Source of the DNA: Takakia lepidozioides
Lineage: Eukaryota > Plantae > Bryophyta
Reading direction: 5' to 3'
Length of the DNA stretch: 64,000 bases
Assembly: GCA_030704615.1 (NCBI GenBank)
Contig: CM060731.1
Coordinates: 14,322,001 to 14,386,000 of the forward strand
Each line of letters opens with the position of its first letter. Positions within the stretch are counted from its first letter, which is position 1. Of the stretch, positions 4,037 to 43,215 are shown piece after piece. A program made the position numbers and the translations under genes. The notes under the pieces are model-generated. The model was given only the letters and a program-made list of their open reading frames with translations. It was not told where the DNA came from and ran no database searches.

Positions 4037-4038
4037 CT

Positions 4039-4050
4039 TGGTATCAGAGC
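4039..4050 (+). promoter_or_regulatory. Primer-binding site for tRNA-iMet
   Basis: TGGTATCAGAGC 2 bp after the 5' LTR; this is the canonical plant iMet PBS. Confidence 0.93.
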
Positions 4051-4089
4051 AGAGTTCAATACGCGATCGTCCTTGGGATTGGCCTCATC

Positions 4090-15540: not shown

Positions 15541-15928
15541 TGCCACTTGCTTCCCTGGTCTTTGGCAGTCTTCAGCTGCCCCTTGAGTGTATCCACCTAG
15601 TCCTTAAGTGTCTGGACCTGCTGTGAGCATTTCCACCTCTGTCTCCATTTTCCGAGATCGCTCTCTTTCTGCATCGAGGTCGGCTTGGACATGGCGTGTT
15701 TCGTCTCTCTGTCTTTGCCACTTCTATTCCCACTCGTCTCTGCGTTGTATCAAAGTGTTGTATTGGCGAAGTAAGGTCGTCTTTTGATCTTCCAACGATG
15801 CGATTATAACCTCGTGGTTACATACTGTTCTTGCTGTTGCCAATTCCCTCTGATGTTTCTCTTTGATGTGGTCTAAGATCATGCTAAGGTTCTCCGGGCT
15901 TATGATTAGAAGTTAGCTTTACTTCCAT

Positions 15929-17180: not shown

Positions 17181-19296
17181 AAGAGGGCAGCTCTTTTGTG
17201 TGCTTGATTCTCACTCCCATTTGGTGTTTGTTGTGGTCTCCTTGGTAGGATTTCCCACCACAGCCCCTTTCTTCCAAGCAGCCAGTTGTCAACCTTGCTC
17301 TCCTATCCTTCACCTTCTTCGTCAGTGAAGTACTCCCTTTCTCCTTTTTTATGTTCCAGCCATTTAGGTGGTTTCTCCCTCAATACTGCCTTCATTTGCT
17401 GCATTGCCATGTATTTACTCTCTGTGGTTTTAATTTTCTCATGCCCAATAGTTGGAAGAATTCCATGTGTTAGGCTGATTGCACTCTGAGCTGCAATTTC
17501 CATTCTTTTCAGTGCTTCCCACAGGCTGGCTTTTGCTGGAACAGGTGTGTCCTCTTCACTTAAGTTTTCCTCTCCTCATCATATCTTCTCCAAATCTGGT
17601 CATAGACGTCCTCATTTCCTTCTGTCTCTGGCCCATCATGCTCATCCTCCTTGACTGTCCCTTGTGGTTCAGCTCTTGTTTGTGTGTCTCCATTAAAGGG
17701 ACATCCTTCGTGTGGTGGAATGTTGCTCACAATAAGTGCTTGTTGTGGGGTTCTTTGTAGGATTTTTTAGCTCTGTTCTTCCCTCACTTTTCCTCCTTTC
17801 AGGTGATCATCCTCTCAATTCTAGTGCCTTTGTTTGCTGCATTGCAGTGTGGTTCCTCCATGTGCACATGATCCATTTCTCCACAGTGTGGAGAGACGGT
17901 CTATGGCTCCCACTCTAGGGATCAAGGGAAAGATATGGAGAGTTGTCCATAATTTGCATGCTCACACTATGGACAGAAGTCTAATGGACAGGTTAATGAA
18001 CAGAAGTCTAACTTCTATAACACAGTCCAAGGTGTGGCTCAAGGATGTACCCCCTCCCCCTTTCATGTTGAATTATTCAAGTAAGCTAATTGGGTGGATG
18101 CAACTCACATGTATGCTGAGTGCAGGAGCCTCGTGGATGTAGCAGGAAGCAACAGCAGCAATTGCACACTTGATAAAATCGGGTACCATCATCTTCAATA
18201 CATTTCAGCCTATTCTGTCCTCTTTTCAAAGTAGTCCCTAATTGTCCAGCGAAGGGGAGGATATATATGGATTATGGGTGTTGTGGTAGGGATAGCTAAA
18301 GGGGCACACAAAGTAGGGCTGGTTCTGCTTTCAGTGCACATGGTTCTACTTACAAAAGTATTCGATCAGAAATACAGGGTGCTGAACTTGTGCCCTTAGA
18401 TTGTGTTTTGAGGAGCCAAATTCTTGGACATCAGCGCTATTTTGTAAATCTGACTGGTAGTTGTTTAAGAGAATCTCTTTTTACATCTGATGTTGGCTTC
18501 GGTGTCTTTGTTATTCCTTTGCACTTTGTCACTTTGGTCTTTCTTGTGAATGATGGTGTGTTATGATTTTCCAAATAATATTAAAAACCAAATTCTCAAA
18601 CAACTAATTTGATGCCACGCCTCCAACCCAACAAACTTCTTTACAGTAGGCACCATGACTACACAACATCGCATCATACATTGACACGTGTCATATCCTT
18701 GGAAAAACACATGGCAACGAGCTCCTACAGGCATAGTCATGGGAATGATTTTAAATACATTTAAAATTTAAAGGAAACTAATCATATGACGCCAAAGGTC
18801 CAGATATCAACATGTTGGTAGTCAGGATAATGACTGCAAGGCCTCCTCATAATATGTCACGTGTCAATTTTTGGAGATGCCATATGGCGCACATCCACGA
18901 AAACCTTCCGGACTTATTAAAAAGAGACACGTGTACAATTTGCAGCAGCACATTAAGTCATGTATGGTAGAAGTACATATGACTGCCCTGATAGTGAGAT
19001 GCATCACTTGGTTCATCTTACTGCAGTCATACGTGACCGACCATCATGTACTCATTGTATTCACTTGGTTTGCACGACTTAAAGTCATTGCAGTCATATG
19101 TACCATTTATGACTACGGGATAGTCATATATACAGTCATATATACCACAATCTGTTGTAGTGCTCATTCCAGTAGATCGTAGTTTTTCAAGCTGGAGAGT
19201 AGCAGGAGACAGAGTTCCGCGCCAGACAGTGGAAGGCGTAGAAGACAGTCATTCTTTTTTACTTCAGCGCGAGAGAGGAAGAAGGGAAGAGAGAGA

Positions 19297-22200
19297 ATGA
19301 AAGGTCGCAAGCTGAACATGACACTGAAAGAGATCGCAGAGGAGAGCGCAGCCCTGGAAACCGAACACATGGCGGGGGAGGACTAGCCGCCAGCTCCTGA
19401 TGAAGTTGGGGATGAAACTGCGTCAGAGGACGACACAGACGCTATGGACACAGATGAGGCAGAAGCTCTTGCGAAGGAATCCACGCCGAAGGGGAAGAAC
19501 GTCGTGGAGGAGGAGGCGACGCCGAAGGGTAAGAAGGCTGCCCAAACTGGGAGGACGGCCGCCATTGTTGCTACATCGAAAGCATCTGGGAGTTCTTCGG
19601 CCAAAAGACCTCAGGTGATTCTCTTACTTGCCATCTTCTGTCAAGTTTCCAGGGCATGAAAATTGTGTGCGGTGGCGCACGCAATTTTCTTGCCCTCTTT
19701 TCTGCTATTTTATGCTTGATCGTTCAGAGTAAGACCACAGGGATGCAGGCAATGCACAACACCCAAACCCGGGAGTGACCCACTACTCACCCAAGTAGTG
19801 AGATTAGAGTTCGAGAAATGAGCAATTTCTGGAGGTTCTCTCTATGACATTTTCTCATTTCTCGAACGATCATTACCCTATCTCCGAAGTTACAACTGTG
19901 CTGTGTTATCAGCGACAGAAGCCTTGAAAACTCCGCAAAGTGAGTGTGAGAGAACCCCCAGAAATTGCGTGTGTCAACGCACGCAGTTTCTGGATGTTCT
20001 CTCACACTCACTTTTCTGCCTATAGTGAGATTTGATTAACTGTCTGCAGCATACTTTTATGGAAGAGAGTAGATAGACATTGGGTATGAAATAGGCAAGG
20101 AAATGAGTACCTTTCAGAGGGTAGAAAATTGCGTGTGTTGAAGCACGCAATTTCTGGCAAGTCTTTTACATTCGTAATATATCGTTTTGAGTGTAGACGT
20201 AGAAAAGGAAAGGTGCTACTCAGGTCGAGGAAGAAGTGATTGAGCAGGAACTGGTGGTTGTTGAGGAGGAGGACGATGGCAGGCCCTATGAAGACGGAGC
20301 GAAAGATCTGCTTTCCTTCTCCAAAGTGAATTCTGCCCAAGTCATCAAGGCCATGGGCGTCCCTGGGGGAATAATGATACCCCTATGCCGTCTGATCTCC
20401 ATGCCCTTCGTTCGACCAGCTCTCACGAATGACATTCAAAAGTTGGAACATGATTTTTGCCATGGGTACATAGAGGGTCAATCTGTTTTTTACGTCTCCT
20501 TGGTGGACTCCGCTGGCAGAGAGGTGTTGGTGGACGAGTCCATTGTTGGAGGCTGGGATCCTATCTGACGACAGATAAACGAGGAGTTTGAATCTGTCAT
20601 TTGCAAGAGGCTCGTCACCCAGCCTTTCTCAGGCAAGATGTTTCATGTCTGGGATGGCAACCACCGATTGCTTGCCTGGAGGAACATGATCAAGAGATAT
20701 CATAGCACCAAGGAGGAGTGGCACTACTCTGTGGCCTCAATGGTGCTGGATCCCAAGGGAAACATCACTGCACTGTTGACGGCAATGCATGACGTTAACA
20801 AGTAAGTGTCTCACCTTTTATTGTCCGCATTTTTCCCATGACTGTTTGTTTGCTTTTAGCGCTCGCTGACGACATACCATTGTATGTGACAGGGGAACTG
20901 AAACTGCCCATGTGACAACGAACCTTCTTCACACACTATTCAGGATCCAGAATATCGGCCAGATGCCCCTCAATTCATTCAAGAGCATCGTGAGTGCGGA
21001 GTCATTCAAGAAATAATTTGACATCAAAAACGTCAGATACCTGGTACAAACTGACGAGGGAAGCATTCATGGAGTACATGTACACGTTAAGTATTCCATC
21101 GCTCTAGCCTTCCATTGTCTGTTGTGATTGTCAGTAATAAGTGATCTCATTCCGGATTACGTTTTGCAGCAAGAAATAGTTGAAGCTGGAGAGGAAAAGC
21201 AGAGTACTATTTGAAAAACCCGGAGGGTATGAGAACGTCCAAGGGAGTGGCGGAAGCCATGAAGTTTACGATGCATGAGGTACGGAAGAAGCTCATGAGC
21301 GCTTTCGTGAAACAGCTGAGAATAGCTGACCCTGATTTCGGTCCCAAGTTCCTTAACCAGGTGAGGATCCACTGGAACAATAACACCAAACCGGAGATGA
21401 CACAGGAAAAGCTTCACCGGTTGTCAACTGTAGCGGTGGAAGCAGACCTGAAAGTGAAATGGTTGGAGATTTGGAATTCCGACCAAACTGTCAAGGATAC
21501 ATACTGCTTCCCTAGGGGTGAAAGAGATGAGAACATCAGGCACATCAAACCTTCAGCAACCAAGTTCTTGATACATGGTTGCACAAAGCCACCTACTTGA
21601 GCCAGGTACTTTTCAAGACTTTCTTTGCTCAAAATTTTGAGAATATCTTCCCATGCATGGAATCTAACCCATGCATATGTATACCTGCAGATTGAAGCTT
21701 GTACAAACAAGGTGCTGGAGAAACAGCTTTATGACTACAAAATTACCATGACCATGCCTGAGGACACTTTGGAGGATTACTTGAGGCAGTGGAAGGCCAC
21801 TACTTGGAGCAACTGCTTCTTTAGAGAGTTTTCCCGAGATGGAGGCATCTCCCGCACAAATGACTTTGACTAGCAGTACGGGGCGGAGGAACCATGAAGA
21901 GGGTCCTATATAGGTTCGTTGATTTGTTTTATGTTTGGAAAATATCTTTGGCAATTAGTAGACAGACAGTTTGTGGCCATGCAAAACTGCATGTGCCAAC
22001 GCACGCAATTTTGGAGGGCCACAAACCCAGATGTGTTCTCTCCTCCATCATGTCTTTCATTGGCAGTTCTGAATGGAATATCTGTCTGCCGAGAATGGGA
22101 TATCTTTCTGCATATGGAACCCTTGGTTTTCTCCTGTTCTTACATATGTTACTTGTGAGTGTATTTCAGTTGCCTCATGCTCAAGTATGTGTGCACCCCA

Positions 22201-24350
22201 AAATTGTGTGCGTCGACGCACGCATTTTGGGAGGGCCGCAATATATGTTTTTTTGCCTTCATTGTCTAAAAGTGTACCTCCTTTTTTTTGTAGGTATATC
22301 AAGAACGTGCTCATTCCGGGAAAAAACCTCAGTAAGTACCCTGCCTTCATCGATTTGTGGACCTCTGACCCCTCTAATAGTCAGACCATGTACACGGTAG
22401 CCATCCTCAGAGACTACGGAAGATATCACCTTAAAGACTGCTGCTGGTATCTTGACATTCCCAAATCAGATTGCCCCTGGTATGAGTTGCAGACACGGAA
22501 CCAGAACGACAATGCGGAGTCTTTGGCCCCTCTCACTGACAAAGAATTGCATGAGAGGAATCTGCTGAACCTCGCTGAGAAGGAACCCGCAGCCAACAAA
22601 ACTCATGTGAGAGGGAAGGGAAAGGGAAAGGATACAAAGGACGAAGGGAAGGAGAAGGCCACCCAAGGGGAGACTGCGGGGGGTGAGGTAGCGCAGACCC
22701 CAATTGCAAACAAGGAACAAAAACGTAAGGGGAAGTTTGAGCCATACGACGCAGTGGAGCACCCATCTAGAATCCAGCGAGAATGTAAATGCGAGTTTGT
22801 CAATGATTCGTTCCTTGCCATGATGGAAAGCAGAAAATCTGGTTACACTGGAGAACCCTCTCGAACTTGGGGCAAGCTGTGTGCATTCCTTGAGTCGGTA
22901 AGCCAATTCCCACTATTTGTCTCCATTAATGTTTTCCATTTTGGATAGTTATTTAATTTTTGTCGTCTGTCTGTTTTCCGGTTTCGAAAGGGCAGTGTTG
23001 GGTCAATGGTACTTAGAAACCATATGGTGCCGACATGGTGATTGTGGACATTCCGGATGGGCTGCCAGTACCGGATATTCTACCCACAGGCACCTGCCCA
23101 ACATGGAATGCATTCGATGAGAGGTACTGGCGGTGGGTCTTTCATTTTGCAATTTTTTTTTATCGGATGCAGGGGTTATTGTAATGATCCAGTCCGTCAA
23201 TACGAAATGTCGACGGGAGCTTGCAAGCTACCTCAAGGTCTTGGGGATGAAAATCATCGAAACGTGGAATGGTGTGAACAGCCTGTACTTGACAAAGGGC
23301 GACTGTCCCGGACAAATGGTAAACGACCTGCTCTTACCTGCTTCATTTGAAGTTCAATTTCACCCCTGCAGAAATGAGTGCGTCAACGCACTCATTTTCG
23401 GTGGTTTCAAGCACTGCTCTTTCCAGATGATTTTTTGGGGATTCACTAATATGTGCTTCATGTTGTCTTGTGTGTAGACCCGCCTTTTTGAGGCCGTATG
23501 CCTCGTCAGAGTGCACCTGCTTCAACTCCCACAGCAGTGAAAGAGTTCAGGCTTCATGGGGGAGGTTGTTTAATCAACGATAAGTTCGATCCAGTGGTGG
23601 ACGACATGCACTACAATTACGTGGATTCCAATGTGTGCTTGCAAAAGTTCCACACCATGGAGAGGGGAAGAAGGAGAAGAGCCCATCATTTATTCAAACA
23701 ATTGTGGAGAATAGTTCCCATCCGGGGGCGCACATCGTGGACCTCACTCTTGGCACAGGTTTCACCCCGAACCTGTTGCGGTGTTTTCTTCTTGGTGCAA
23801 AATTTGATTCATCGTCCTAAGAGTACTCTGTCTTGCAGGAGCTTCGTACCATGCTTGTAAGGCAGCGGGCACACATTTGTTTGGTATGGAAGGGGATGCG
23901 GCCATTTTCAATGACCTCCTCCATAACTTGGAAGCGCCATTGCCTGCCGCCCAACAACATGAGGGTATAGTGAATGTGGAAATCAACGAAGGGGACGACA
24001 AAGTCCTGGACGACAATTTCGCATGTGAGTAAGTTATTTTTCTATAAGTATCCGATTTCTCCCACGAAAATGGCCCCCCCTTTCTCATTCATGGTGGCTA
24101 ATGCAATTGTGGTACTTTGGGTGGCAGGATATTGGAAGCTATTCCTTTGGTCGACGTCTCTTTTCTTCACAGTGACTTGTGGTGCAGCCCTCCACGTTCA
24201 TACATCCTACCCGACTACGTGGAGGCCATTGCTCGTCAACACAGTTTCATGTTATCTCCCCCATGTGCTCGGAAGCACAACAGGCACCTCGGAGCTCGGG
24301 TTTACGTCGATGATACAGCACAAGTTTCAGGGGATAGTTCTAGTGACTGA
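19297..24350 (+). pseudogene. Spliced ParB/Srx-like + beta-class amino-DNA-methyltransferase-like gene (copy B partner, all domains present)
   Basis: Acidic/basic N-terminus; IPLCRLISMPFVRP...FHVWDGNHRLLAW (DGNHR at 20653-20667); ADMVIVDIPDG (DIPDG at 23047-23061); KEKSPSFIQTIVENSSHPGAHIVDLTLGT|GASYHACKAAGTHLFGMEGD. Premature stops at 19384 and 20566, plus frameshifts. Confidence 0.8.
19658..23397. repeat. Dispersed intronic palindromes AAATTGCGTG(T/C)GT-CA-ACGCACGCAATTT (copy B type)
   Basis: Copies at 19658-19689, 19958-19993, 20124-20154, 21982-22013, 22197-22231 and 23372-23397 (perfect AAATGAGTGCGT-CA-ACGCACTCATTT), all within predicted introns. Confidence 0.85.
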
Positions 24351-24647: not shown

Positions 24648-25320
24648 CCTAGGGGATGATGTTTGTATTGACTCTCGGGTCCAACGCAAGTTCAAAGGCA
24701 GCCTCCTGATGCCTAACATTGGTTATGGGTCAAACAAGGAGACAATGCACCTAGGGGATGATTTGTGGACTCTCGGGCTCAACGCAAGTTCAAGGGCAAC
24801 ATCCTGATGCGTAACATTGGTTATGGTTCAAACAAGAAGACAGTGCATCTAGTGGATGATGTATGGACTCTCGGTTTCAGCACAAGTTCAAATGCGGGAT
24901 CCTTATGCCTAACATTGGTTATGGGTCAAACAAGAAGACAAGGCACCTAGGGGATGATTGGTGGACTCTCGGTTTCAGCGCAAGTTCAAGGACAACATCC
25001 TCATGCCTAATATTGGTTATGGGTCAAACAAGAAGACAAGGTAGACGTTTTGTCGATTTCTGTTACACAATGTTGAAAGACCCGGAATTCCTCCTCATGC
25101 ACAAACGAGAGCCAGATTGATTTTGTATGTTGTTGTATAATGGTCCTGATGAAAAACCATGAAAGTTGCAGTGCTCTCGTAAGATACATGAGCACATTTC
25201 TACCTCACTGGCAAGGGCCGCAATACGCATTAGAGTCCAAACCATGTTTAGCGTGGTCAGGTGGTGCGTTGCAGGAAGTATAGTGCTGAAATGGCTCACA
25301 ATGTGTCGACACTGAAGAGG
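24648..25320 (+). pseudogene. RPL32: Captured 60S ribosomal protein L32 (eL32) fragment, first part amplified 4x in tandem
   Basis: Units of ~98-102 bp at 24648, 24750, 24848 and 24946 encode [25 protein letters not shown]. They are followed by ...EFLLMHKR, an intron-like spacer ending TTGCAG, then KYSAEMAHNVSTLKR. Confidence 0.88.
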
Positions 25321-25358: not shown

Positions 25359-26203
25359 CACTACAACATATTGCGGTATTTATGACTGTATATATGACTA
25401 TTCTGCAGTCATAAATGGTACATATGACTTCTATGACTGTAAGTCGTGCAAACCAAGTGAATACAATGAGTACAAGATGGTACGGTCCGGATGACTACAG
25501 TTAGATGAACCAAGTGATATCTCTCACTGCAGTCATATATACCATCATACTGCAGTCGCAGCTGCCGAGCCACGTGGCGAGGCGCAATTGATTAAAAATT
25601 AAATTAAATTTCAAAAACTAAAACAATTAAAAACATATGTCGGACGCCGCGTCGCACCGCATTGTGCCACGCATAATGTATTTTATAATAATGAAAAAAC
25701 CACGTGGAGCCCATCTAGGCTACCACGTGCTATCCCTAGCTCGCCTACTAACCCTAGGACCATCTTATCCATTTGATTGTACTTAGAGGAGTTTGAACCT
25801 GCAACCTCTTTACTATAAGAATTATAGTTCACTACCTGCTAACCAATACACCATTAGTCATTCATGTGATCATATGGTGTTTTAATTGTATTATACACAC
25901 CAAATTACATAATCCCCAGTAGTCATCATGACTATGTAATCTCATCCATGTACACTGTAGTCATGGAAATGACTATGAATGGTGAGCTAAATCTGGTCAA
26001 TTGTCATTGACCAGCCTTCCGCCCATTCCGGAGCCATGTAGTCATACAGACGACTACTTAGATAGTCGTTTATATGACTACAGTCGTATGAACGACTGCG
26101 GGAGGTCAATTTCATATAAAAACATGGTACAGTCATGGTCAAAGTCAAGAAAACCGTGACTACCATGGTTTGGCAGTCATAACTACCGCGATCTGTTGTA
26201 GTG
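25359..26203. mobile_element. CACTA MITE-like element of the same family as 13228-19162, opposite orientation
   Basis: CACTACAACATATTGCGGTA ... TACCGCGATCTGTTGTAGTG; TSD TGC/TGT (one transition). About 180-220 bp at each end match the reverse complement of the Pack-CACTA ends. Confidence 0.88.
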
Positions 26204-27031
26204 TGTAGTAAGCACTCGGACAAAGTCGCAAAATGAAAGATCACTCTCACATCTGCTGTGTTGTCTTTTTCTATGTTGCTGTCATCTGTCTACATTTCCC
26301 CAAATGCCAGACATTCATTAAATCTTATCAAGTGCTTCATGATGGATTTTAGGTACAATTTCTAATGTTTGTGCAAACAACATTGATCGTTGTGCTTGGT
26401 GTTCATAAATGTTAGAATGACATCCTCGCTCAATATTCATCCACTCTATCGTCCATTCACGATATTTCATCCACATTTGTCCACAACTATTCATCCCCAT
26501 TCATCCATACTCGCAGTGTCCCATCCACATTGGCTCTGCTTCACCCTCATTAACTTATCCACAACCATTCTAGACTGATGACAACAACATAAAATACCAA
26601 ATTAGCATGGCATTAAATCATTTGAGGACCATTGTAGACTGATGACCTGGACATTAATACATCCACAACCATTTCAGTCTCTACAAACACTATCATTCTG
26701 CAACATTCACCAACATTCAACTCTCTTCTGCACCTCGTCTCGTCGCCCACACATGGTTCTCTGTCTGCCAAATGCGCAATCCGCGGCTATAGACCCCCCA
26801 TTTGCCTCTTCGGTCCGCGGTTATAGGGCCATGCCTATGAAAATGATGTGGCATGACACGACGTGGCGTCGGGCACGCTGGCGAGGTCGGCTGACGTGGC
26901 GTCAGACCCGTCAGCCAACGTGGCAATAACTGATGATGTGGCGTGAGCCCGCCTATGCTCACGCGCTCTCACGCTCACGCTCTCACGCTCACGCTCTCAC
27001 ACTCACGCGCTCTCACGCGGAAGCATCCCCC

Positions 27032-27965
27032 CCATTGGCCTGTCACGAATTCGGCCTGCCAACACTCCTGCTTATGTTGGGCATTTCGACGTTTGGGGAG
27101 GAGGTCTACACATAGACCCAAATTGCGACCCAGTTGAATCTGATGTTGTTCACAACTATGTGGATGCGTCCCAGACTCTGAAAAAAACTGGAGGAATTCC
27201 ATGGAGAGGTGCCCGAAAGGAGTCGCCCGCGTTCATGCAGACCTTCATTGAGACATGCAGCCGGCATGGTGGCAAAATGGTTGACCTCTCCATGGGCACA
27301 AGTGCATGCCGAAACTCTTCTCCATTCTTCGTTGCACATGTTCCTCTCCTGTTTTGGCTTGTGACATGGTTTTGTGCTTTCATTCGCTATCCTGCAGGGG
27401 CTTCGTTCCATGCCTGCAAGTGTGTAGGAAGACATCTTTTTGGGTTTGAGGGGGACGAGGAGCTTTACTCTCGGGTCATCGCTCCACTCTATGAGGGATC
27501 CTCGCATTCGACCCAGACTGAGAAGATTGTGGAGGAGCAGGATCTGCAAGAGCCGGATGCTCTAGATGTGGATTGGGATTTTTCATGTGAGTAAGTGCTT
27601 GTTCTTTTGTGGCAACTCATAGATCCCATGACGGATCCTGTTGGCGTTCCTTTTTGTGGCTGAAGTTTGGCTTCTAGAGTATTTAAGAAGTTTACTCATT
27701 ACTGTGTGGTTGCACGAGTCATATGACGCCACGGTTTCTGTCGTTCTTTGCCAACCCGGATTTTTTCCCAAGTCCTCCAGCACAATTTCATTTGCCATCT
27801 TATGCGGAGGCTGCGGCTAAGGAGTATAGTCTGCTGGCATCTCCCCCTTCTCTGCTTCACGAAAGACATGGTTTTCAGCAGAGCAGGGCTAGCATCTTTG
27901 TGGATAGTTCTACCTTCGTCCTGAACAGTGCGTCTTGTAGTAGTGGATCTTCTTTGTCCGAATGA
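27032..27965 (+). pseudogene. 3' exons (methyltransferase motif I region and tail) of a ParB-MTase partner gene, probably copy A
   Basis: GGGLHIDPNCDPVESDVVHNYVD...PWRGARKESPAFMQTFIETCSRHGGKMVDLSMGT|GASFHACKCVGRHLFGFEGD...DFSCE and a last exon SPPAQFHLPSYAEA; homologous to 23498-24350. Confidence 0.85.
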
Positions 27966-29115
27966 ATCGATTCTTGTGAAGGGTTTGTTTAAAAACAACG
28001 AGTTCACCTGTATGCCTTCTTTATGATTGGATGTGAGCCTCTCTCTCAACCTTGTATAACTGGGAAAATGACATGTGGTCCTTCTCAATCAACAAAACAA
28101 TGTGGACTCAAAGTTTGCAATATACACTGCACCCGACATAATTGATTTTCAAGCAAGACAAGCATGGTTTCATGGATTTCGGAGCTCAAGGGTTTTGGGA
28201 GCTACCACTACAAACAACTATCTATTCTTTCATTTATGTCATTCATCCACCTCTCATTCGTTATACAGACATTCATCCGACATTCATCCCTCATTCATCC
28301 AAACAACATCCATATCCGACCTTGTGATACTGGCCACTCTGCACAGTAATAGGTCTTCTAAATCGACTGGACGTCCGCGGTTATAGGTAGGCAGGTCCTC
28401 AAGCTGAGCAGATTTCTGCTCACGCAATTTTCTGCTCGCGGGATCTGCGCACACAATAGCATCCCCCCCCAAGGTGGGTGCATTTGAGGATGCAAAGCAA
28501 GGAACTTATGTGTACTCTGCTTATGTACTGGGTGTGGCAGGGAGGCTTTGGAGATTGTGAATGGGTGATGCCTGATAGGTGAACCTCATGTGTATTCTGA
28601 TGTTTGTGCCAGTCTTTGAGCACTGAAAAAGTGCAGATGGATCTGTATGTATTTGTAAGCCTATACGTTCCGATGTGAGGTTCTCTGGTTTTATGACAGG
28701 AACAAAACAATTGTGAGCAGGAAGTGAAGGGTCATCTCCTATTGGAATTCCTCAATCAGCATAGCTGGGCTTGAATCAAACATCAATGGACCAGGCCTTT
28801 CGTCTTCACTAGGTGTTGTTGCTAAAAAAATAACCAATTGTGAGAGGGTCCCTAATCGAATGATGCTTCTAGGTACAGGTGAAGTAGAGGAATATAACAT
28901 AATATTACATCGCACTTTGCACCTAACTTCCCAACAAAACGGCGTAGCATCAACCTTGGTCTGAGAGAGAAAGCCACAGTTCTCTATATAGATTAGCGTG
29001 ATTAAATTTAAAGTCGCACTCTTAGGGTTTCATTCTCCTCAAAAACCCACCGATATATACTTTCAGCTGCACCCGCCTCTCTCTCTCTCTCTCTGCACCA
29101 TACATACAAACAACC

Positions 29116-30941: not shown

Positions 30942-31110
30942 AGGACCCGGATCCGAACCCGTGAACCCGCTAATATTTTCCAATAACTACCCGGACCCTG
31001 CTGAGTCCGTGTTGAGAAACCCGGACCCGAACCCGGATCCAGACCCGGACTAGGCTCCAAAAAAATACCCAAACCCGAACCCGGCGGGTTCCTTAAAAAG
31101 GCACAACCAT
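30942..31110. repeat. ACCCGG/ACCCGAACCCG cluster resembling a hAT subterminal region
   Basis: Multiple ACCCG(G/A) motifs ending near CAACCATAG after an AT-rich stretch; matching end and TSD not found. Confidence 0.4.
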
Positions 31111-32232
31111 AGTATAGAGCATGATATATATTGCCCCTAGTATCGTATTGCCTGGGCATTGGCCACCCTACCTACCAGCCAGGTAGGACCTACCCGGGTT
31201 GATATCAGTATTGATACCCGGGTTGGACCCAACGTTTTTTTTTCATTTAAGAACTTGAGCCATGTTGGCTCCTGGCTGGCCTATGAGGAAGATCAATTGG
31301 CGACTCTGTGGCATGTGATCTCGAACCGGTGGCTACTGTCAAGAATGTTTGATGAGTTTTATGCGAACTCAACTCATGTAGTGTTCGGTTTGTGGGAGCG
31401 ACAAGGGAGGTAATTTTTTCCAAGTAACAACGACACTGCATATTGCAAAGCCTAGCACAACTCTGTCACATGGATACAATCCATTGACAAATATGACTAA
31501 TCTTGTCCAAGATCAGCAACTCTGCTCAAAGCCTCAGGGATGCCTCGGCGTGAGCCTGGTCACGTGAGCGCGTGAGCACAACTGCGCTCACGCCACGTCA
31601 CCTTGCGCAAATGCCACGTCACGGGGCTCACTCCACGTCATCACACGTGAAGGCCGCGTCACCACGCGCCCAGAAAGAAGTGGAGTGTATTCCCGCGGAT
31701 TGGCACCCTTTACCGCGGAAACAAGCTGGACGACATAATAAAAGGCATTGAATAAAGGATGGATGAATGTACAGTTGGATGATAAACAGATGGATGAGTG
31801 TGAAAAATGAATGTAGATGGATGAATGAGGGATGGATAAGAGTAAAATGGATGAATGTATAATGGATGTTGAGCAATGACAAAAATTCATGACAGGAAGA
31901 TGCATGACCAAAACTTTTGACAAATGCACAACGTATATGAAATGAGTGTGGAAGGTTTGTGGGGTGGATTAAAGAGTACAGAGGATGAATGTACAATGGA
32001 TGTTGAACAAAGGAAAAAATTCATGAATGGAGCACGCATGAATACACTGTAGATGAATGCACAATGGATACGAGAAGAGTCAGGGAGGTTTGTGAGATGG
32101 ATTCATACATATTGCAATTTAAATGAAAGTTGATTCTGTGATTATTATTTGTTCTAAAGGAACAACTACGGTGGAGGAAGGGGATTCAACGTTTTCCAGA
32201 TAGTATGAAAATGAATATTAAAAGAATACAGT

Positions 32233-35200
32233 TCAGTCTGACTCGGAGTCAGTACAATGTATCCCCGCTTCCTCTGCATCTAAGTCTAAGTATTTTAGAA
32301 CACCGGATCCACGCTGGATACACCTACGGCTGGCCACTAAAAAGTCAGGGGATAGGGACTCGGCCGCGTGAAGTGCCATTGCTTCGGCATAAACAGGAAG
32401 CAGAAAATTGGAAAGGGGGCTGTCGAAAACAGACTCGCCAGAAATGGTTTATACTCGATTATAACACATTCTACTAGAGTGGAGCTGCAGAGAACATTGA
32501 AACTCATCATGAAAGCACAAGCAGAAGGGAGACGGCATACCAGCTGACCAGGGAAACCCCCTTTCACAAGGTAGAGGCTGTTCACACAATTCCATGTGCG
32601 CAAAACTTCAAACCCTGAAGACTTGAGGTATGATGCCAATGCCCGACGACTATCATTGTCACATGACTGAAAAAGCAGAAGTGTCCCTGCATCAGAGAGG
32701 AAGTTGTTACAGAACCCGAACACCCAACTCCAGTAGTTGTCCTCGAATTTGTTCCAGCCTGGCGTCTTGCCCTTTGGAAGAACTTCTGGCACAGCCTGGC
32801 CATCCGGGATGTCGAGAATGACAATGTCGGCCGCATAAGTTTTCTGCACACCGCACACGAAGGTGGGACCTGTGCTCACCTGCAACAGACATGTTTTTTA
32901 TAAGAACGATGGCAAGAATGTTTTCAAAGAACGAGACTGAAATACTGCCAACGAAACTTTCAGAGAAAAAGGAAAGAAACTGGAATTCTCACCAGATTGA
33001 GGAATGAGATTATATTGTCCCAGGTAGGGGATGACACCCCAGTGTATCCTCTCTTTCGACTCTGCATCATCGACAGCCAACCCTCATTAACAATTTTCAT
33101 CTCTCCTGCCGAATCAGAACGGGAAGGGTGTGGCTTGGCATCGAACACGCACTGAACAGTGCGGGTATATCTTCCAACAGTAAAGTCCTGCCCACTCTCC
33201 ATCTCCTTTTCTTTCTCCTTCCCCTTGTCCTTTTCCTTCTCTTTGGACTTGTCTTTGTCCTTTGGCTTTGCTGGTGAGATGGCTATGACATCAACAGCCT
33301 TGTCTTTTGGTTTGCGGCCCGCATTCTTTCCCTTCTGCGGCGTTCCCTGAGCATCAGGCTCCTTGGCAGCCAATGTTGCTATGTTTCGTTGGTACTCTTC
33401 GTCAGTCAAAGGCGCCAACATCTTAGCGTTATTGTTCAAGTATTTCATATGCTGTTCTTGAAAGGTCGTGTGCTCCGGTGGGCAGTCAAGGTACCAGCCA
33501 CAGTCTCTGAAGTGAGAAGGACTCTAGTCCTTCAATATCCTTGCAGTATACATGGTTGGATCGTTTGCAGGGTCCGACCACATGTCAAGATAGTCTGGAA
33601 ATTCCGTTCAAGTGATTTCCTTCCATAAGCACATATTTCGTGTACCTGAAAAAAAGAGATAAATCCCAACCCACAAAAGCGCTCAGTGAGTAAGATGCAA
33701 GTAGAACAGAATGAAAAAAACATAGATTGAAATGGCTCTGAGAACTGCTCCAAGGACCTTCCAGGACCACGCGACTGCTCCAGATGTGAATGTCGTCAAC
33801 GCCATTCAAAACATTCCATTCAATGATACTGTAAATACACCCTAATCCAGGTGAATGCAAACTATCGTTTTGGAATGACACAAACATAGAAGTGAATGTC
33901 GTCAACGACATTCACTAATCAAGCCTAATTATTCCTCAAGTGAAGCAAAATCACAGGATGGAAATCATAAACTCGAGTAAGGAACCCTCCAGGAAAACTC
34001 AATGCACATTCATAACGAACATATCACTGAGGACCTCACAACAACACTGTATGTGAATGGCGTCAACGCCATTCAAAAAAATACAAAAAAGAAACCAATT
34101 ACTTAGCTCCCAATCCATGTAAATTCAAAGTGTCGCTGTTGAATAATACAAACACAGAAGTGAATGTCGTCAACGACATTCACTTTGGATTTCTCATAAC
34201 AGAGCTTATCAAGCCTCCAGATTCCTCGCAAGAGGCAAAAACAATGCAGAACAACTGAGTGTCTGCATTGACATTCAGCAAAATGAAGTGAGGAACCCTC
34301 ACTGTAACCTCTATGGACATTACAAAAATTTACATAACTCTGAGGACCTCTCAACAACTCCGGATGTGAATGTCGTCAACGCCATTCAAGGACATTATCA
34401 ATTCTAATCAGGGACACTATAATTACACCCTTAGATCCTAACCAGGTGAATTCATATACTCGCTTAAGAATGACTCAGACAAATAAGTGAATGTCGTCAA
34501 CGACATTCAATCTGGATCTATGATTGCAATCCTTATGAAGCCACATTTTTTCCCAAAAAAAGCAATAGAGTTTCAAGTATGACATTGCACCTGTACACAA
34601 CTCGCATCATGGCCCACTCTCCTCCAACCTGACTGTCAAAGTCGTTGGACCGTAAAATGTTACCATCTTTGGAGAACTCCCGGAAAAAACAGTATCTCCA
34701 GGTGAGACCTCACCACTTCCTTATGTATGCCTCCAATGACATTTGGGGAGGGGAAACAATCGAAATGTTCAGGTCCTTCAAAGTCTGATCCAACACAATG
34801 ACGGCGCGCTTTTCGAGCTGCAAATAGTATATTTGTCAGAATTGCAAATAAGATACTTATCACATACTTGAAGAGAAGAAAACAACATGTTTGAATACAC
34901 ACCTGACTCCAAAATGTAGCCTTGTGGAGCCAGTTATCAAACACCAAATCACTGATTCCTTCCACCTTTGTGCCAGGCTGTATGGTGCTATTTGGGAACT
35001 GATTCAAGTCCTTTACTGTTTGATCTGAGTTCCATATCTCCAGCCACCTTATTTTTGTTTGTGGGTCGACCATCGATATGGCCAGCCGGTGCAATTTCTC
35101 CTGCTCCATCTCCGGATGCACATGCTTGTCATAGTGTGTTTTGATCTGCTGAAGGAACTCAGGACCAAGTCCAGGATCTACTATTCTAAGCTGCTTTCCG

Positions 35201-36989
35201 AAGGCGGACATCAATTTGGTTCTTCGCATTTCAAACTCCTTCTTTATTGCAACTTCCACACCCTTTGATGTCCTTAGTTCCTCTGGTGTAGTGCGGTAAT
35301 ATTCGGATTTTCCCTTCTCAGCTGCCTCTGCCAGTTCTTGCTGCATTGATTCAAGTAGTGATTAGCTCCGAAGGGACTACAAACATGTATTCGAAAAGTA
35401 AACAGAGTACAGACTCGGGCTTACCGCATACATGTATTCCAGAAACGCCTCTCGTGTCAAAGAATACCAAGTGCCTGCAGCTCTTCCTGTTTTGCACTTC
35501 TTGATGATATTGGGTGGTAGTACTGTCCGAAAATCATCCAGCTTCATCAGACCAATCCTCTGAATTCGGAATAGTGTGTGAACCAAGCTTGTTGTCACAT
35601 GCGATTTCTCTGTCGATCTGCAAAAACATTGGAAACATTGCATTCCTTAACACTGTTTTTTGAGGATTAATAAGACACTACAGAGGGAATGAAATCTCCT
35701 GGATGACTTACTTGTTCACGTCGTGCATAGCTGTAAGAAGCCTAGCGATGTCGTTTCCAGGATCCAAAACCATTGCCTCCACAGCAACATGCTTGTCTTT
35801 GTCTTTCGCATGGTGTTTCTGAATGTATCCCATCCATGCCAGCAATCGGTGGTTGTCGTCCCAGACATAGAACATGTGGTTGCAGAATTGCTGGGTGTTC
35901 TTTCCCATCATGAGGCCCAACTCGAACTCCTCATTGACATCTTTCCAGCACTCATCCCAGTTATCACTGATCTCTGGAGACACTAATGTGCTTTTCCCAT
36001 TTATATCCGTCAGTGACACATAAAAAACTTGTGCACCAAGTCTATATCCATGCACAAAATCACTCTCCAATTTTGTTATGCCATGGGAAAGAGGTGGACG
36101 CACAACAGGCATTGATATCATCCGGCATAGAGGGATGTTCAGACGCCCTCCAGATACGAGCATGTCCCTTATAACCTCCTGAGAGTTTACCTTCTAGAAT
36201 GACATGAGTTCTTTCACCTTGTCAAGGTAGTGCACTTCAGATTCATCTGCTTCATCTGTATTCTCTGAGCTTTTTGCGGACTCGTCCCCATCTCCAGATC
36301 CTCTCCCCTCTGATCCTGTAGGCTTCGACCTCACAGTTTTCTGCACGATGCCATTCAGTTCTGACTGAGTAATTTGCAAATAGTGAATGGCGGTAACGAC
36401 CATCACTCTGTCTCAAAGAAACTCACTATGAATGGTGTGAAACAATTCAGCACAATCTACACAAGCAAAGCTGATATTGCCGTATTCAAAACAAAAGCGA
36501 GAGCGATAGCGAACGGCGTTAACGACAATCACAAAAGATAAGGACCTGCCGGATCGGTGTTGTGTAATGACATCTATGTGCAACTGATTGGCGGCAACGA
36601 CATTCAGTATAGTTTAGGACGGACAGTAAGTGCAGATTATTCAGATTGACTCCACTCAATCTCTACGCATATCTTCAACAATGAAATGTAAGGTAGATAA
36701 AACTTACTGGCGCCTTCTTAGGTTTTGAAATTGGATCCCCTTCTGCAACTTTCCTCTTCCCTCTCACATCTGCTGGAATTTCTGTCTGCTCTAGGGTTTC
36801 TGGACCTTCTCCTGTGCTTCCACCTCCTTCAGTGTCCCTGCGAATCATCTTTGCCTCCAAAGGCTGGCGCAATCTTATCGCCGACTGTGTCACAGCCGCT
36901 GCCTTAGTGTCCGTCTGCTCTTCAGAATCAGTCTCCGTGTTCACCTGCTGCCTTGGCCCTGTGTTCTCCAACAAACGACGCCTCGTCAT
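32233..36989 (-). pseudogene. ParB-methyltransferase partner gene of copy C (motif I exons missing)
   Basis: IPLCRMISMPVVRP...FYVWDDNHRLLAW...AMHDVNK; QLRIVDPGLGPEFL; AADIVILDIPDG...FLSDAGTLLLF; last exon SPLSNFLLPVYAEA...DSESD. Splice positions match copy B. Confidence 0.82.
33786..34509. repeat. Intronic array of palindromes GTGAATGTCGT-CA-ACGACATTCAC (copy C type)
   Basis: Six copies at 33786, 33892, 34053, 34160, 34366 and 34487, arranged as three ~270-310 bp units of two; degenerate copies in intron 1 at ~36385, ~36512 and ~36586. Confidence 0.92.
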
Positions 36990-37845
36990 TTGCTCTCTTG
37001 CTCTGCGTCTCTCTCTAAGGGAAGTAAAATAAAGAGACTTTCTTCTCTTTCGTATTGTAGAAGGAACCCTCTCCAGCTTGACTACCACTCTCTCTCTAAG
37101 CGCGAAAAGTAGAAAAACACAGTGACTCCCGATTTCTTGCGGGATTGCCTGGGTTCTTGCGTGTCTCTAGAAGCATCGGATTCCCTCTCGCGTGACCGTT
37201 ACACATAGTCGTTCCCTTATTAGTGCACATGCCAGCAATTGGTGTACAGCTGTTTGTATTCAGTTATGGATGTCTGACGTGTGTCGCCCAAAAAAAACGG
37301 CGTGTTCTGTATTAGAACGGTTTCAATATTTAAAAATAACAGCGAATCCCAGAAATCTTGGCGCACAGTCTTACACAAATAAATGTAAATGAACGAGAGT
37401 TTGATGACAAATCTTGGAATATCATACACGGTCATCCTTGTTAGTCAAACCCCACATTCGTTTCACATTTGGAACTTTCCAGGTGCGCATGATCATTGGT
37501 AGTAGTATAAAGATACATTTACTTAATCTGCAATCCCATCCTCAGATCCTGTGGCATGCTTCCAGGAAGTCGGCTTTGTTATTGGGTTTATTGATGAGGT
37601 TCTGGTTAACGGTTTAACAGCTGCCGACACTGCTCCTAGGGATACTCTGACCACTGGGCCCACAAGAAAAGTAATTAAAATGGACGGCTGCATATCTGGA
37701 AAGAATAACATAATATGCACAGTCGTTGTCTGATCTTCCTCCGCCATATTCTCTACTCATTCTTCAACTGTGTTCTAGAGACATCAGTAAACCGATTTAC
37801 ACTAGATTTGCGATAGCAAGGTACAAACGTACGCGAGGAAGGAAG

Positions 37846-40800
37846 ATGGCTTCCTCTGAAGCGGAGTTCTTCTCTGACGACAAACCAGTGCCGCTCTCCC
37901 AGGAAGTCCTTGACAATGGATTTGCAATTGTTCTGGAACATGTCTTGGCTACCCGTTTTCAGCTGCAGAATGACTCCATCTTTTTGGAGAAAGAGGTGTA
38001 CGATCTTAAAGGGAAGTTGTTGAAATACTCTTTCCAAAACCGTGATGAGACGGCTCATATCAGCCAGTGGAGAGTGCGTCCTGGTCGATACAGAGTACTT
38101 GGAGAGCCTCGACGAAAGTCCCTTGGGTCATATGTGACGCCCGGGACTGCTGCTTCGGTTGTTGAAGACAAGAGGGAGGTGGTGGTGAAAAAAGAACAGA
38201 CGTCCTCCACTCCAATCGTTGAGCTTTCGGATTCTTCCGATGATGACATAAGTGAAATTCCAAATCCAGTCTTTCCTACTGTGGTTGGAGAAGCTGATGA
38301 AGAAGAGATTTGTAGTGTCATTCCAAAATTGTGGGCGATGGGAGGAATGGCTGGATTCAAAAGTGAGTTGCGGGGAATTGATTGGGAATCTTTGAAGCAG
38401 GTGCCTGTGAAGTTCTTGCCGGAGACTTTTGATGGCGATATCCTATTCGAGCTGCCTCCTCCTCCGCGAGTTGGAGGTGTAACAATCATGATGCATGGAA
38501 TGGACAATAAACACGACGGGCACACGTGGTGCAGAACAAAAACATCCAATATTCAGATTGATGACAAGCTTGTTTTCAGGAGGACAGTTTGCAATGGACA
38601 CCTTAGGTGTGATAATTTGAATTGCAGACACTTTCTTCAGTCTGGGGTTCATAATCAAAGCGAATGGGAGGGTCTGGCGGAAAATCCATTTCAGCCTGGG
38701 ACTGCCCCTCCACCGGCAAACACTTTCGTCTGCAAATTCTGCAAACTTGTGCCATCCTGCTTGGCGCTCTGCGGAGCAAGAATGTACTATGTTGTGCACC
38801 GTTTGAAAACAATGACAAGAGCTTGTGTGCATTTCGGATTCCATAACCATCCTGTCTCGAAGGGGGATTACAGGGAGAGTGTTGAGACAGTATCGAGGTT
38901 GATCAAACAGGAGTTCGGGAGAAACCCATCCGCAACAACATCTGCAATTGCTCTTGGCGCAAGCAAGTCCTTCTTGGAAAGCCATATTTTGAGTGAAGGA
39001 GATTCTGTGGGGACTAAACTTGACGGTGCAGCATTGGACCTGGTCATGGATCATTTCTCCACTTTAAGTTCACCTAACATTCGGCATCAGATCAATGCAT
39101 TGAGAATGGGCTCTGGGATCAGAGGCTACATAGACAATATTTTGGAATTGAAACGAGTGAGCAAGTACGATTACATCCAGGACAATGTATTCCCAGGTCA
39201 AGGTGCCATCAAAGTTTTTCTTTTCAAAATGTCGACTGTTGGGGAGGGCAGTGGGGTTAGCCTCGTGAAGCGGATGTAGAAGACTGGGGACTTGCAGAAC
39301 TGTTTTCTTATGTTTGATCATGTGAAACGAGTGAAGGATTGGACGACAATGGCTTGTCATGTCTACGATCCAGTGTACCAACGAGTTATGACAATTGCAG
39401 TTTGTGACATGCAATCCGAGGATACAGAATCCCAGAAGCTTATGTGGAATTCCCTGATACGTGTCATGGGCTGCCATGGGTTGCCATCTCCAAATTTCGC
39501 AGGTTTCATGGCGGATAGTGCTCAAGCAAATTTCAATGCTGTTCGTATTGTCTTCGGATCGGGCGACCCAAAAGTGCCTATGCCAGGAAGAGAGCGTACA
39601 TGTCTATTCCATTTGACACAATCTCTGGAAAAACATACAAAGTCGGACATCAAACCAGAGATGCAGACTCAGCACCGTAAATTGTGTAAAGAGTACAAAG
39701 ATGCTAGAACAATGAAGGAGGCGGACACTTTGTTCCAGACAATTCGTGCCTGGTGGTTCTCTTCTGGAGCTGCATCACTTGAGAGTATGAGAGCATTGGA
39801 AGATTGGCTGGCGTTTTGGCACTTCCGGTATAGACAGTGGGGAGCAGCCATGACAATGGTACGAGGCTTCTATTTCATGCTTTATTCATACATTTGCTTT
39901 CCATATTTTTGACTCATTGCTTTCTTTATGTTGTTTCCTGTGCACTGTTCTGAAGTGTGGTTATCCTCTTTGCAGAACATGTCCATTGAGGAAATGGCGG
40001 ACATGCCATCTTGCAATTTGGCAAAAACTGTGCACAACGCATGGTTGCAGCAGTCTGGGAAACGAGGTCGGGATTTGTATGTGGCAACAACAGATGATTT
40101 GATACGTGCCTTGCAACAACAAACCCGATACCGTGATTTCTTACGAGGTGGGGTTGGTGGCAAGGGTCCGGACAAATGGGAGTTGATGCTGCGTGCTGCA
40201 AACAGATCTGGGGATCCAATCAAGATAGCACGGGCGGTGAGCATGTATGCCCAGGGAACGCCACTTGTTTCTAGAGTTCCACATCTTGAAGGGGAGGAGA
40301 GATTCGGCTCCTGTAAGAGGAAATTGAACACTCCACCTGGTTCGGATTCAGATTCCCACAGGGCAGACCGTGATAACTTCTCGAAGCCTCGTGTTCCCCT
40401 GCATGACAGCTCCATGTCCGGAACCTCCATTGTGGAGGAACCTCCAACACGACGGCAAGCTCCAGCATCAAACAGTGCCACTGAAATGGTGCAGGAGAGA
40501 AACAACCCCTTGATGTGCTTGAGTCCGTATGCCCCGACCACGTTTGGCACATAGAACGCACAAGTGTAGGGTCTCGTGTGAAATGTACAGCGATCAGGGC
40601 AACTAATTTCGAGAAGTGCACTTCATCTATATCCAGAGGTGGTGCCCAAACTCCTGCTCCGACTTTCACGGGCTTGATGCGTCCATACGGTCAACCAGAA
40701 GCCAAGAACCACAAGTTCTGGTTCTGCGCAGATGATTGTGCCAGATGTGTGCATGGAACTGTGCGTCCTTCCGTAGTGATGAAGCCATCTCCTCCAACCG

Positions 40801-41360
40801 TTTGGCCCGTGAAGGTGGGAACACATCTCAGCTTTCAGGAGATTGAAATGCTGGAGGAGGCAGGTTTTTCCCTTGCGAGACAACCCCAACTCCATGCATG
40901 TGCTACTACTTCTGCATCCTCCCAGGTCCCCCCCGCAAATTCTGACTTGTGGCCAACCAAACGAGATGGAAAGCTCGTTCGGCGTTTCCCTCCAACCGCC
41001 GAACACTTTGGCAAAGTGGAGTCCGCAAGAATGCTCCAAGCTCGTGTTGGAAGCACCATGGAAGTACCCGATCTAGGATATGGTCGGGTATTCACAATCA
41101 TCACTTCCACATCTGCTGTTCATGACAGGACCTACGACATCACGGTTTCCAATTTCCCCAATTGCACATGTCCTGATTTTGTGAATATGCTATCAACCAG
41201 TTTGGGCAAGAGAGGTAAATTCATACCCTGCAAACATTTGTATTTCATATTTTTGAGGAGGATGGTTTGCGATCCCAAACGTGACAACTTCATTCATCAG
41301 GCCACTATGAGTTTCAACGAGGTCGATACTCTTTTGCAGCGGGATACAACACATGGGTAG
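37846..41360 (+). pseudogene. MULE-type DDE transposase with GCM-like domain and SWIM finger (copy C), nearly intact
   Basis: One intron at 39859-39975; LMFDHVK, FMADSAQANFNAV, RTCLFH and SWIM CTCPDF...CKHLYF. Lesions are TAG at 39277, NLAK instead of NLAE (40024-40026) and a frameshift near 40515-40550. Confidence 0.92.
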
Positions 41361-42391
41361 CATGAACTATGTAATGTGGTATGTGGATGACCATGATTTG
41401 AAATGTGTAATTCACATCAATTCGTCGGCTGTGCAATGATATGGCCTCCAACTATACGGAGTGAGCTCTGAGTGACAACTTTTAGGTAGTGCACATTTGT
41501 CATTGCACCGTTCGAAGTCTACATGTCTTGCTGTCGCTATGCACTACAATCATCTTTTGAAGATGATCCTAACTCTCATTGTTATTTGAGGAGGGAGGAA
41601 GGTCTTCCCGTGGCAGCCTTTATGGCGCACACTTTGTGAGGATATTTTGTCGTCCTCGTAATTGTAAAAGTGAAACAAGCATTTGTAATTGCACAATGTT
41701 GGATGCTGCAATTGTAGGCCTCAACGCTCGTCTTGATTATATTTAGGCAAGATTCCCTGCATTAATTCCACGGTCATAAGACCATCCACGGTTATAGGCA
41801 ACGCATGTTAATGCTGACGTGGCAGATGACGGACAGTGCCACATCATCATTTACCGCCACATCAGCATGCTGACATGACGCTCACGCCACGTCACTCCTG
41901 CGTGAGCGTACGCTCGCGCGCTCACGCGCAACGCTCACGCGCAACGCTCACGCCATTGCGTCGTTGTCAAAGCCTCATGTGCCACTGCAAAAGGCGGTGC
42001 AAGTCTGCTTAAATGGAGGTGCATGACACGGATACTAGGCGGGTAAGCGAAACCTAAATGAGAGTCCCCTCCATAGCTTGACCCCTTGGCGAAAGCGGGA
42101 AGACTTTGAACCCAAGGCTTTGCTCCTTGCGCTGGCAGGGTGGTAGGTTTTTAGAAATTGATAGGCAAGATCATCTGGATCTAACGAACCCAATTGGCAT
42201 GTGGCTCTTTCCCTGTGCGACAGTTGTATAAGCAACGTCCTCATTGCAGCGACATGATGGCATTAGGGAGGGCATAATGCGAAACAATGCCATATTTTAA
42301 CCCATAATTCCTTTGCAAATTTCGTGAGGCCAATTTCTGGATCGAAAAGTGGCAAAATTTCGCGCAAAAAAAAAAACGCTGGTTGGACCTA

Positions 42392-43215
42392 CCGTACTTA
42401 CCTAGCTTATTAGGCAATAATTAATTCAAAATCAGGTGCCTAACTATATTTAGAACATTTTTGGAAAATGTGCCTAAAACCTGGAAAAACTCCTGAGAAG
42501 TGCCTAATTGCTCAAAATTGCTCAAAATTGCTCAAAAATCCAAAATGTCCAAACATGTGGAAAAAATGCCTAAATTATTTTATTTAAAGTCCAAAAAATG
42601 GCAAAAATGCCTACAATTTAGATTTTCCATGTCCACACAACTTCCAAAGGGCCATGCGACATCTTCATAAGTCTCATCACCTACCTCATGTGAATCTTCT
42701 GATTCTGAGAGAAGGTTAAGGTCAGGAACATCACGATCCTCGATATGCATGTTTGCAAGACATCAGCTAATGCTCTCAATGACACTTCCATCAAGGTAGA
42801 TATCAAGAACATCCTCCATGGCAAGATCTCCTTCCACTTGGGTGTTTGGGTTTGAAAACAAAGAAAATGTAAAATTGGCTCTCATTGCCTCACCTTGAAA
42901 GGCATCTTCAAATGCTCGTAAAATTCCACAAAGTCTCCAACTTGACAAAATCATCTCCTGTTGGCACTTCACCTCCACCCAAGACTCATACAACCAACAT
43001 TATGTGTTTTTTTAAATAAAATAACCTCAACCATAGTTTTTGAGGGAGGTCTAAAACAATTGTTCATCGTTATCCAGGGTCGACTGAAATACATGCCTAA
43101 TATTTGGAAATTACCTAGTTGAGGTGCCTAAATAATAAAAACGAATCTGCCTAATAATATTCCATTTTAATTAATTAATAGGCGCGGAAGTGCCTAATAA
43201 GCTAGGTGAGTATGG
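42392..43215 (-). mobile_element. Non-autonomous pogo-like (Tc1/mariner) deletion derivative
   Basis: TA|CCGTACTTACCTAGCTTATTAGGCA ... TGCCTAATAAGCTAGGTGAGTATGG|TA (25-bp TIR, 2 mismatches, TA TSD). The internal relic YESWVEV...MILSSWRLCGILRAF resembles a pogo transposase C-terminus. Confidence 0.85.

Follow-up and report, generated by a model that had tools for sequence, protein, structure and literature searches.

The window, the whole 64-kb stretch of DNA analyzed here, carries three copies of a transposable element, here named A, B, and C, all of which are broken. Element C is laid out as follows:

31537-41966 (no strand): element C, a Mutator-like DNA transposon (MULE) of 10.4 kb with head-to-head genes (from the sequence and empty-site contigs)
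31526-31536 and 41967-41977: 11-bp target duplication of element C (from the sequence)
31548-31613 (no strand): left sub-terminal CTCACGC/GCCACGTCA repeats (from the sequence)
41881-41953: right-end repeat set of the CTCACGC/CACGCGC type
32300-36989 (minus strand): accessory gene, a broken copy (from exon models, fold, and relatives)
exon 1 of this gene (minus strand): disordered
35712-36192 (minus strand): exon with the ParB/Srx fold (predicted)
35423-35617, 34903-35361, 34591-34817, and 32992-33645 (minus strand): helical exons
32541-32879 (minus strand): N-terminal half of the methyltransferase-like part
37846-41360 (plus strand): transposase, broken (MULE-type DDE core and SWIM finger)
33785-33810, 33891-33916, 34052-34077, 34159-34184, 34365-34390, and 34486-34511 (no strand): six C-type palindromes, 26-bp spans
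36382-36608 (no strand): C-type palindromes of intron 1, three decayed sites centered at 36394, 36520, and 36595

The empty-site joint of element C (31525 to 41967, with 11 letters in common) was found in contigs X1 and X2, which stem from one sample that is possibly the source of the window. MULE target site duplications measure 8 to 11 bp, and non-TIR MULEs exist (PMC6446971); the 11-bp duplication of C lies within this range. A search for terminal inverted repeats found short, imperfect ends with shared CTCACGC repeats. Taken together, the sequence supports the classification of C as MULE-like. Summed contig depth is steeply higher within the element than in its flanks, which fits a many-copy family and gives no copy number. 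Across 31000-42500, the window copy differs from other copies mostly by A>G and T>C readings, an excess that agrees with C-to-T decay in the window copy. The exons for methyltransferase motif I are deleted from C near 32446-32455, and other copies show loose contig ends at 32446 and 32455 with extra sequence there.

The transposase of C matches Atlas MULE clusters at 0.92 to 0.93. It gave no match to the Pfam MULE profile, and its SWIM finger scored below the Pfam cut-off (E 0.004). Judged by eye, its N terminus appears to be a GCM/WRKY-like zinc domain. The sub-terminal repeats differ from the intron palindromes, are common to the end of B, and are candidate transposase sites. The CTCACGC/CACGCGC repeats presumably resemble the FHY3/FAR1 binding word, which would suit a site for a MULE transposase.

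Copies A and B and the insertions nested in B occupy the left part of the window:

1-1990 (plus strand): accessory gene fragment of element A, exons 3 to 6, cut off by the window edge
951-976, 1080-1105, 1196-1221, 1301-1326, and 1500-1525: five A-type palindromes in an intron of this fragment
2190-12600 (minus strand): transposase of element B, 72 to 75% identical in DNA to that of C
3314-10237: LTR retrotransposon interrupting the B transposase
13228-19162 (no strand): CACTA insertion with a 3-bp CTC duplication, dividing the shared promoter of the two B genes
19297-24350 (plus strand): accessory gene of element B, with all exons present but disrupted by stops and frameshifts
19661, 19963, and 20127 (intron 1), 21985 and 22202 (intron 5), and 23372 (intron 7): six B-type palindromes
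26780-27032: right end of element B, with CTCACGC repeats (26941-27018), terminating in GCATCCC like the accessory-gene end of C
27033-28470 (plus strand): methyltransferase C-half exons and right end of another copy

Once the CACTA insertion is taken out, the B accessory gene and the transposase at 2190-12600 stand head to head, and this transposase is therefore assigned to B and not to A; a single element made of the A fragment and this adjacent transposase was rejected. The segment at 27033-28470 is probably the far part of A, interrupted by the insertion of B, and together with the fragment at 1-1990 it probably represents the two halves of one older copy. The LTRs of the retrotransposon are about 740 bp long and 93% alike, and its interior shows zinc knuckle, integrase, and Tf2-type SH3 matches. 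Tandem PPR-gene fragments (13874-15600) and a repeated fragment (15928-17177) lie within the CACTA element, and a related short CACTA is present at 25359-26204. Within element B, a 98-bp fragment of ribosomal protein L32e is also repeated four times in tandem (24648-25039). Host-like genes in the window are a nucleotide pyrophosphatase/phosphodiesterase (53633-55117) and a GH47 fragment (62989-63339).

The N-terminal domain of the accessory protein, encoded by the second exon, is predicted to adopt the ParB/sulfiredoxin fold. The model of this exon has a pLDDT of 96, and its top matches are KorB, PadC, ParB, Noc, and Srx (structures compared were 8qa8, 6ryk, 7bnr, and 7ol9). The best Z-score was 7.4, with an rmsd of 2.6 over 89 residues, and the top eight ranged from 7.4 to 5.2; Z-scores below 8 are middling, and a common fold shows no function. 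In Foldseek, ParB-family chains occupied the top ranks with a best E value of 0.0085. The exon belongs to a set of 478 protein clusters related at 50% identity, and named long relatives of the protein occur in Adiantum ferns and Selaginella. Its median dN/dS of 0.13 (81 non-independent pairs) indicates purifying selection.

In the accessory family, the ParB box reads DGNHRxxAW and AMHxxN (in the former, N is conserved in 99%, H in 91%, and R in 81% of 102 rows) and not GERRxRA with the EN motif of ParB. GERRxRA is described as the CTP-binding form of the box (PMC7333895). We identified no helix-turn-helix in the all-helical region that follows the ParB domain; this region is modeled with low confidence (mean pLDDT of 54 outside the ParB domain in the full-length model). 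Pfam searches returned no ParB or methyltransferase match for the window exons or full-length relatives; as to a VANC-like protein, Pfam gave no relevant match in the 102 ParB-exon rows, and the predicted N-terminal fold is ParB/Srx. PHROGs gave no match, and PDB sequence searches gave nothing relevant. Word-based searches from a single exon or the exon-4 alignment found no long homologs, and no viral relatives were found.

The C-terminal part resembles a beta-class amino-methyltransferase, on weak but concordant matches: PF01555 was hit with E values of 0.003 to 0.006 in two relatives, below the cut-off, Atlas matches reached 0.90 to 0.91, and weak matches to beta-class folds agreed. As in that class, for which PF01555, bdelloid N4CMT (PMC8885841), and Marchantia DN4MT1 (10.1101/2021.02.12.428880) served as N4C/N6A comparators, motif IV appears to precede the candidate SAM-binding motif I, which has a D-x-x-x-G-T-G-like sequence. 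The difference lies in motif IV, given as the catalytic SPPY/DPPY in the bdelloid comparison (PMC8885841): it reads D/N-x-P-x in all six aligned rows that cover it (DIPDG, DYPEN, DIPSN, DIPEN, DVPRN, and NIPRN), the same D/N-x-P-x form is also found in B, L081, P0048, and P0161, and (D/N/S)PP(Y/F) is absent from all rows covering the motif. Methyltransferase activity is doubtful for this reason. Of the ParB-methyltransferase proposed in the original prediction, the first half thus holds as a predicted fold, while the second lacks the DPPY/SPPY motif.

The palindromes were first noticed in the intron after the "MMRVVYR" exon, and they are real. This intron 5 of the minus-strand gene (33646-34590, 945 bp) holds six sites with at least 9 of 11 pairs, centered at 33797, 33903, 34064, 34171, 34377, and 34498, against 0.12 on average and at most 2 across 1,000 dinucleotide shuffles. 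Their consensus is GTGAATGTCG-TCAA-CGACATTCAC; they lie in three tandem units of about 250 to 310 bp with two palindromes each, and all six point one way, whereas orientation is mixed in A and B. The claim that A and B share this pattern was borne out for A (three sites versus 0.10 expected at the strict cut-off, five at a looser one); in B, intron 5 alone is not significant (1 versus 0.06 expected, p = 0.065). Additional palindromes do occur in other introns, as had been noted: three in intron 1 and one in intron 7 of B, and the three decayed ones in intron 1 of C. At the strict cut-off, intron 1 of neither B nor C retains a site, and the B palindromes are largely deaminated.

A and B have arms that differ from those of C around the same consensus center. 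The common CGT(CA/TG)ACG center stands as a consensus and is intact in only one of the six B sites. Tests of motif enrichment covered the 64 kb of the window together with the related contigs. In the window, the A motif matched five times, the B motif six times, and the C motif nine times (at up to five mismatches), in each case only within the introns of its own copy; the C motif has seven further matches at six to seven mismatches. Since the consensus motifs were built from these same sites, only their absence elsewhere tests specificity; on this test, the arms are copy specific, and at these cut-offs the motifs do not occur outside their own elements in the window.

The C palindromes are kept better than their own spacers. 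Between units, the 22-bp cores are identical at 43 to 44 of 44 positions and the spacers at 64 to 72% (130/132 versus 225/336 in total; Fisher p 2e-16). The six cores also contain none of the 40 variant sites listed, out of 70, among genomic copies (about 5.9 expected, p ~0.002), although such contig data can overlook variants where repeats are collapsed or contigs end. In B, one motif recurs in separate introns, with homologous flanks in 0 of 10 site pairs. The simultaneous change of both arms noted earlier at 34054 is weak evidence for compensation: units 1 and 3 carry a fixed G-A mismatch, and the site is one step from these asymmetric sister sites. Among 84 sites in 15 families, we counted 12 both-arm changes versus 58 one-arm changes.

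A scan of metagenome contigs gave 178 related stretches, of which 80 were kept and, together with copies B and C, grouped into 61 clusters at 93% identity. Many relatives have palindrome clusters of their own, located either 5' of the ParB exon or inside introns farther downstream, with 15 sites in tandem units at one locus (L004), 7 at another (L022), and 6 each at three more (L015, L053, and L057). A candidate motif was found in 35 of the 61 clusters, and most of the remaining 26 have short upstream cover. Where at least 900 bp upstream was available, 17 of 26 clusters had a repeated family of even palindromes, and 9 had none. Two distinct palindrome families share one locus at L015 (1-1600) and at L072 (170-810), possibly through nested elements or a motif in transition.

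These relatives share one geometry: the palindromes have even symmetry and a loose center between arms of about 10 bp, mostly with CG-N4-CG. Non-exonic palindromes near the gene were even in 98 and odd in 32 cases across the 61 clusters (p 6e-9, with sites within a family non-independent). Families of at least three sites near the gene, counted with redundant loci and the three window copies, were even in 20 cases, odd in 3 (one redundant motif), and mixed in 2; far from the gene there was a single family, an odd one (173 kb of near versus 70 kb of far sequence in representative loci). Arm pairing was 0.51, 0.72, and 0.78 at positions 1 to 3 and 0.90 to 0.96 at positions 4 to 10. Positions 3 and 4 read CG in 22 of 35 clusters and CA/TG, its deamination products, in 6 more, and the central letters vary. 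Arms stood out against flanks in 14/14 comparisons, a partly circular result, as families were chosen by arm similarity.

Co-variation of motif and protein phylogeny, which the original prediction had put forward as a check, is present but weak. Close proteins differ in 2.3 to 3.1 of 8 arm letters and distant ones in 5.6 to 6.0, and Mantel tests gave a rho of 0.23 (p 0.014, n = 16) and 0.14 (p 0.018, n = 35), with a protein tree built by a quick method and omitting copy A, whose ParB exon lies outside the window. The arms thus appear to track the protein tree weakly, and plain co-inheritance would give the same. One relative, L081 (1-4178), is an apparently intact family member with GT-AG introns and four palindromes on a contig in a cyanobacterial genome bin. 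It is most likely plant DNA contaminating the bin; it was the sole match in prokaryotic collections, and no bacterial donor was found there.

In our view, the palindromes are probably docking sites for the accessory protein, likely keeping cognate copies active. Two-fold geometry, a loose center, variable arms, better conservation than the spacers, and recurrence in separate introns argue for a dimeric DNA-binding protein. The accessory protein is the likely binder, judging from its predicted structure, because no other protein of the element has a fold associated with palindromic sites.

It is quite unlikely that the palindromes are neutral by-products, in which inverted duplication or template switching creates hairpins, tandem duplication copies them, and arm-to-arm conversion keeps them symmetric. 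The sites do lie within tandem units, the co-variation with the protein is expected from shared descent, and the well-covered clusters without arrays fit this origin. Against it stand the constant even parity, arm length, and CG register across very different arms, the far better conservation of cores than of spacers from the same duplication, the occurrence of one motif in introns whose flanks do not align, and the scarcity of such families far from the gene.

Binding by the element transposase through its GCM/WRKY-like zinc domain, with the sites acting as internal enhancers or autoregulatory sites, is just as improbable. The TTGAC in the window cores, which we take to be a W-box-like word, counts in favor but is not kept in relatives. 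A further point for it is a preprint describing a MULE transposase that activates cognate copies sequence specifically (10.64898/2026.08.24.746577). The palindromes nevertheless point away from the transposase because the CTCACGC terminal repeats are common to B and C while the palindromes differ, and the sites are concentrated within the accessory gene or immediately 5' of it.

We consider it very unlikely that the palindromes work at the RNA level, as pre-mRNA hairpins that control splicing or the production of small RNAs. Their intronic position, strong complementarity, and uniform orientation in intron 5 of C would suit this role, but orientation is mixed in A and B, the G-A mismatch of C is fixed, and no Rfam match was found. 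On the sense strand, G-T mismatches (21) equal A-C mismatches (20), which argues against selection at the RNA level. Recruitment of a dimeric host transcription factor, with the accessory protein acting elsewhere, is highly improbable. TGACG-like words in the window cores, which we presume to resemble bZIP sites, speak for it, yet arms and centers are wholly different, both from one subfamily to another in a single genome and from relative to relative, which a single factor would not track. Independent insertion of each palindrome as a MITE is largely refuted, since 16 of the 17 window sites tested lack a flanking duplication (one shows a 3-bp match) and the sites belong to tandem units, and the palindromes were multiplied by tandem duplication.

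Under the docking explanation, the accessory protein would sit on each palindrome as a dimer whose two subunits each contact one half-site, probably through the helical region after the ParB domain. Each subfamily would maintain its own arm sequence and so recognize its own DNA, and the protein may accumulate on cognate copies. The most likely benefit would be that the element stays expressed despite host 5mC silencing; second in line is regulation of the gene by its own product. The weakest steps of this scheme are that the protein would slide as a nucleotide-gated clamp and that its degenerate beta-class domain would transfer methyl groups; this domain may do no more than recognize or protect the conserved C in CG-N4-CG. 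Unlikely as a whole is a more far-reaching version, in which the ParB-fold protein of a large MULE lineage in seed-free land plants would be loaded at the intronic palindromes of its subfamily, there forming a nucleotide-gated clamp, and its divergent amino-methyltransferase domain would mark or shield the cytosines of the element (e.g., 4mC at CG-N4-CG), as a bacterial-type, diversifying lock-and-key anti-silencing system independent of VANC. The lock-and-key self-recognition originally proposed is partly supported.

With ParB-parS, Noc, and KorB, the family shares an N-terminal ParB/Srx fold and clustered palindromic sites, parS being a palindrome. It differs in having no GERRxRA box, no helix-turn-helix identified in its low-confidence helical region, no ParA, and a fused methyltransferase-like domain; its sites are clustered like parS, as had been suggested, but measure 22 to 26 bp and not 16 bp. 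In Arabidopsis VANDAL elements, VANC proteins recognize non-palindromic motifs of 8 to 9 bases, with binding and hypomethylation shown (PMC5735166). Both systems join a MULE to an accessory gene and have family-specific motifs, spread via tandem repeats in introns or intergenic parts, that co-evolve with the protein. The palindromes and the predicted ParB-type fold described here set the present family apart.

The idea of self-binding by ParB-like transposon genes is already in print for algae. PAG3 of red-algal EnSpm/Plavaka elements combines an N-terminal ParB-like domain with a 2OG oxygenase, tandem inverted-repeat arrays adjoin its gene, self-binding and self-modification were proposed, and homologous accessory genes occur in Chondrus Mutator elements (Petroll et al., 10.1101/2025.02.11.637652). 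Our family resembles PAG3 as a transposon accessory gene with a ParB-like N terminus and nearby repeat arrays. In that system, the methylase is encoded by a separate gene, PAG2, whereas here the ParB domain is fused to the methyltransferase-like domain; the repeats adjoin the gene, whereas the land-plant MULE palindromes lie within introns; and the accessible text of that preprint reports no analysis of subfamily-specific motifs, the counterpart of the subfamily-specific arms found here. Sola1-1_Ec32 of Ectocarpus encodes a 1104-aa protein with ParB-like and N4C/N6A methyltransferase domains on the strand opposite the transposase, for which self-modification was proposed (PMC12477816, which cites Iyer et al. 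2011). It is likened to our family by domain description and belongs to a Sola element of a brown alga, not to a land-plant MULE; the string "palindrom" is absent from the main text of that paper. Iyer et al. 2015 (PMC4738411) listed ParB-linked methylases in algae and chytrids and only a few enzymes of this sort in land plants. Our literature search, which reached few subscription papers, found no report of a land-plant MULE family with intronic, subfamily-specific palindromes.

Numerous proteins of this plant family come with a natural partner motif, all of one fixed geometry, so specificity, nucleotide use, and a DNA mark are testable by cross-binding. According to the Bostrychia preprint, no transposon other than VANDAL is known to bind its own sequence and modify it (10.1101/2025.02.11.637652). 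If the docking explanation is true, the present family would represent a second and unrelated means by which transposons recognize themselves, and would be a source of orthogonal DNA-targeting pairs.
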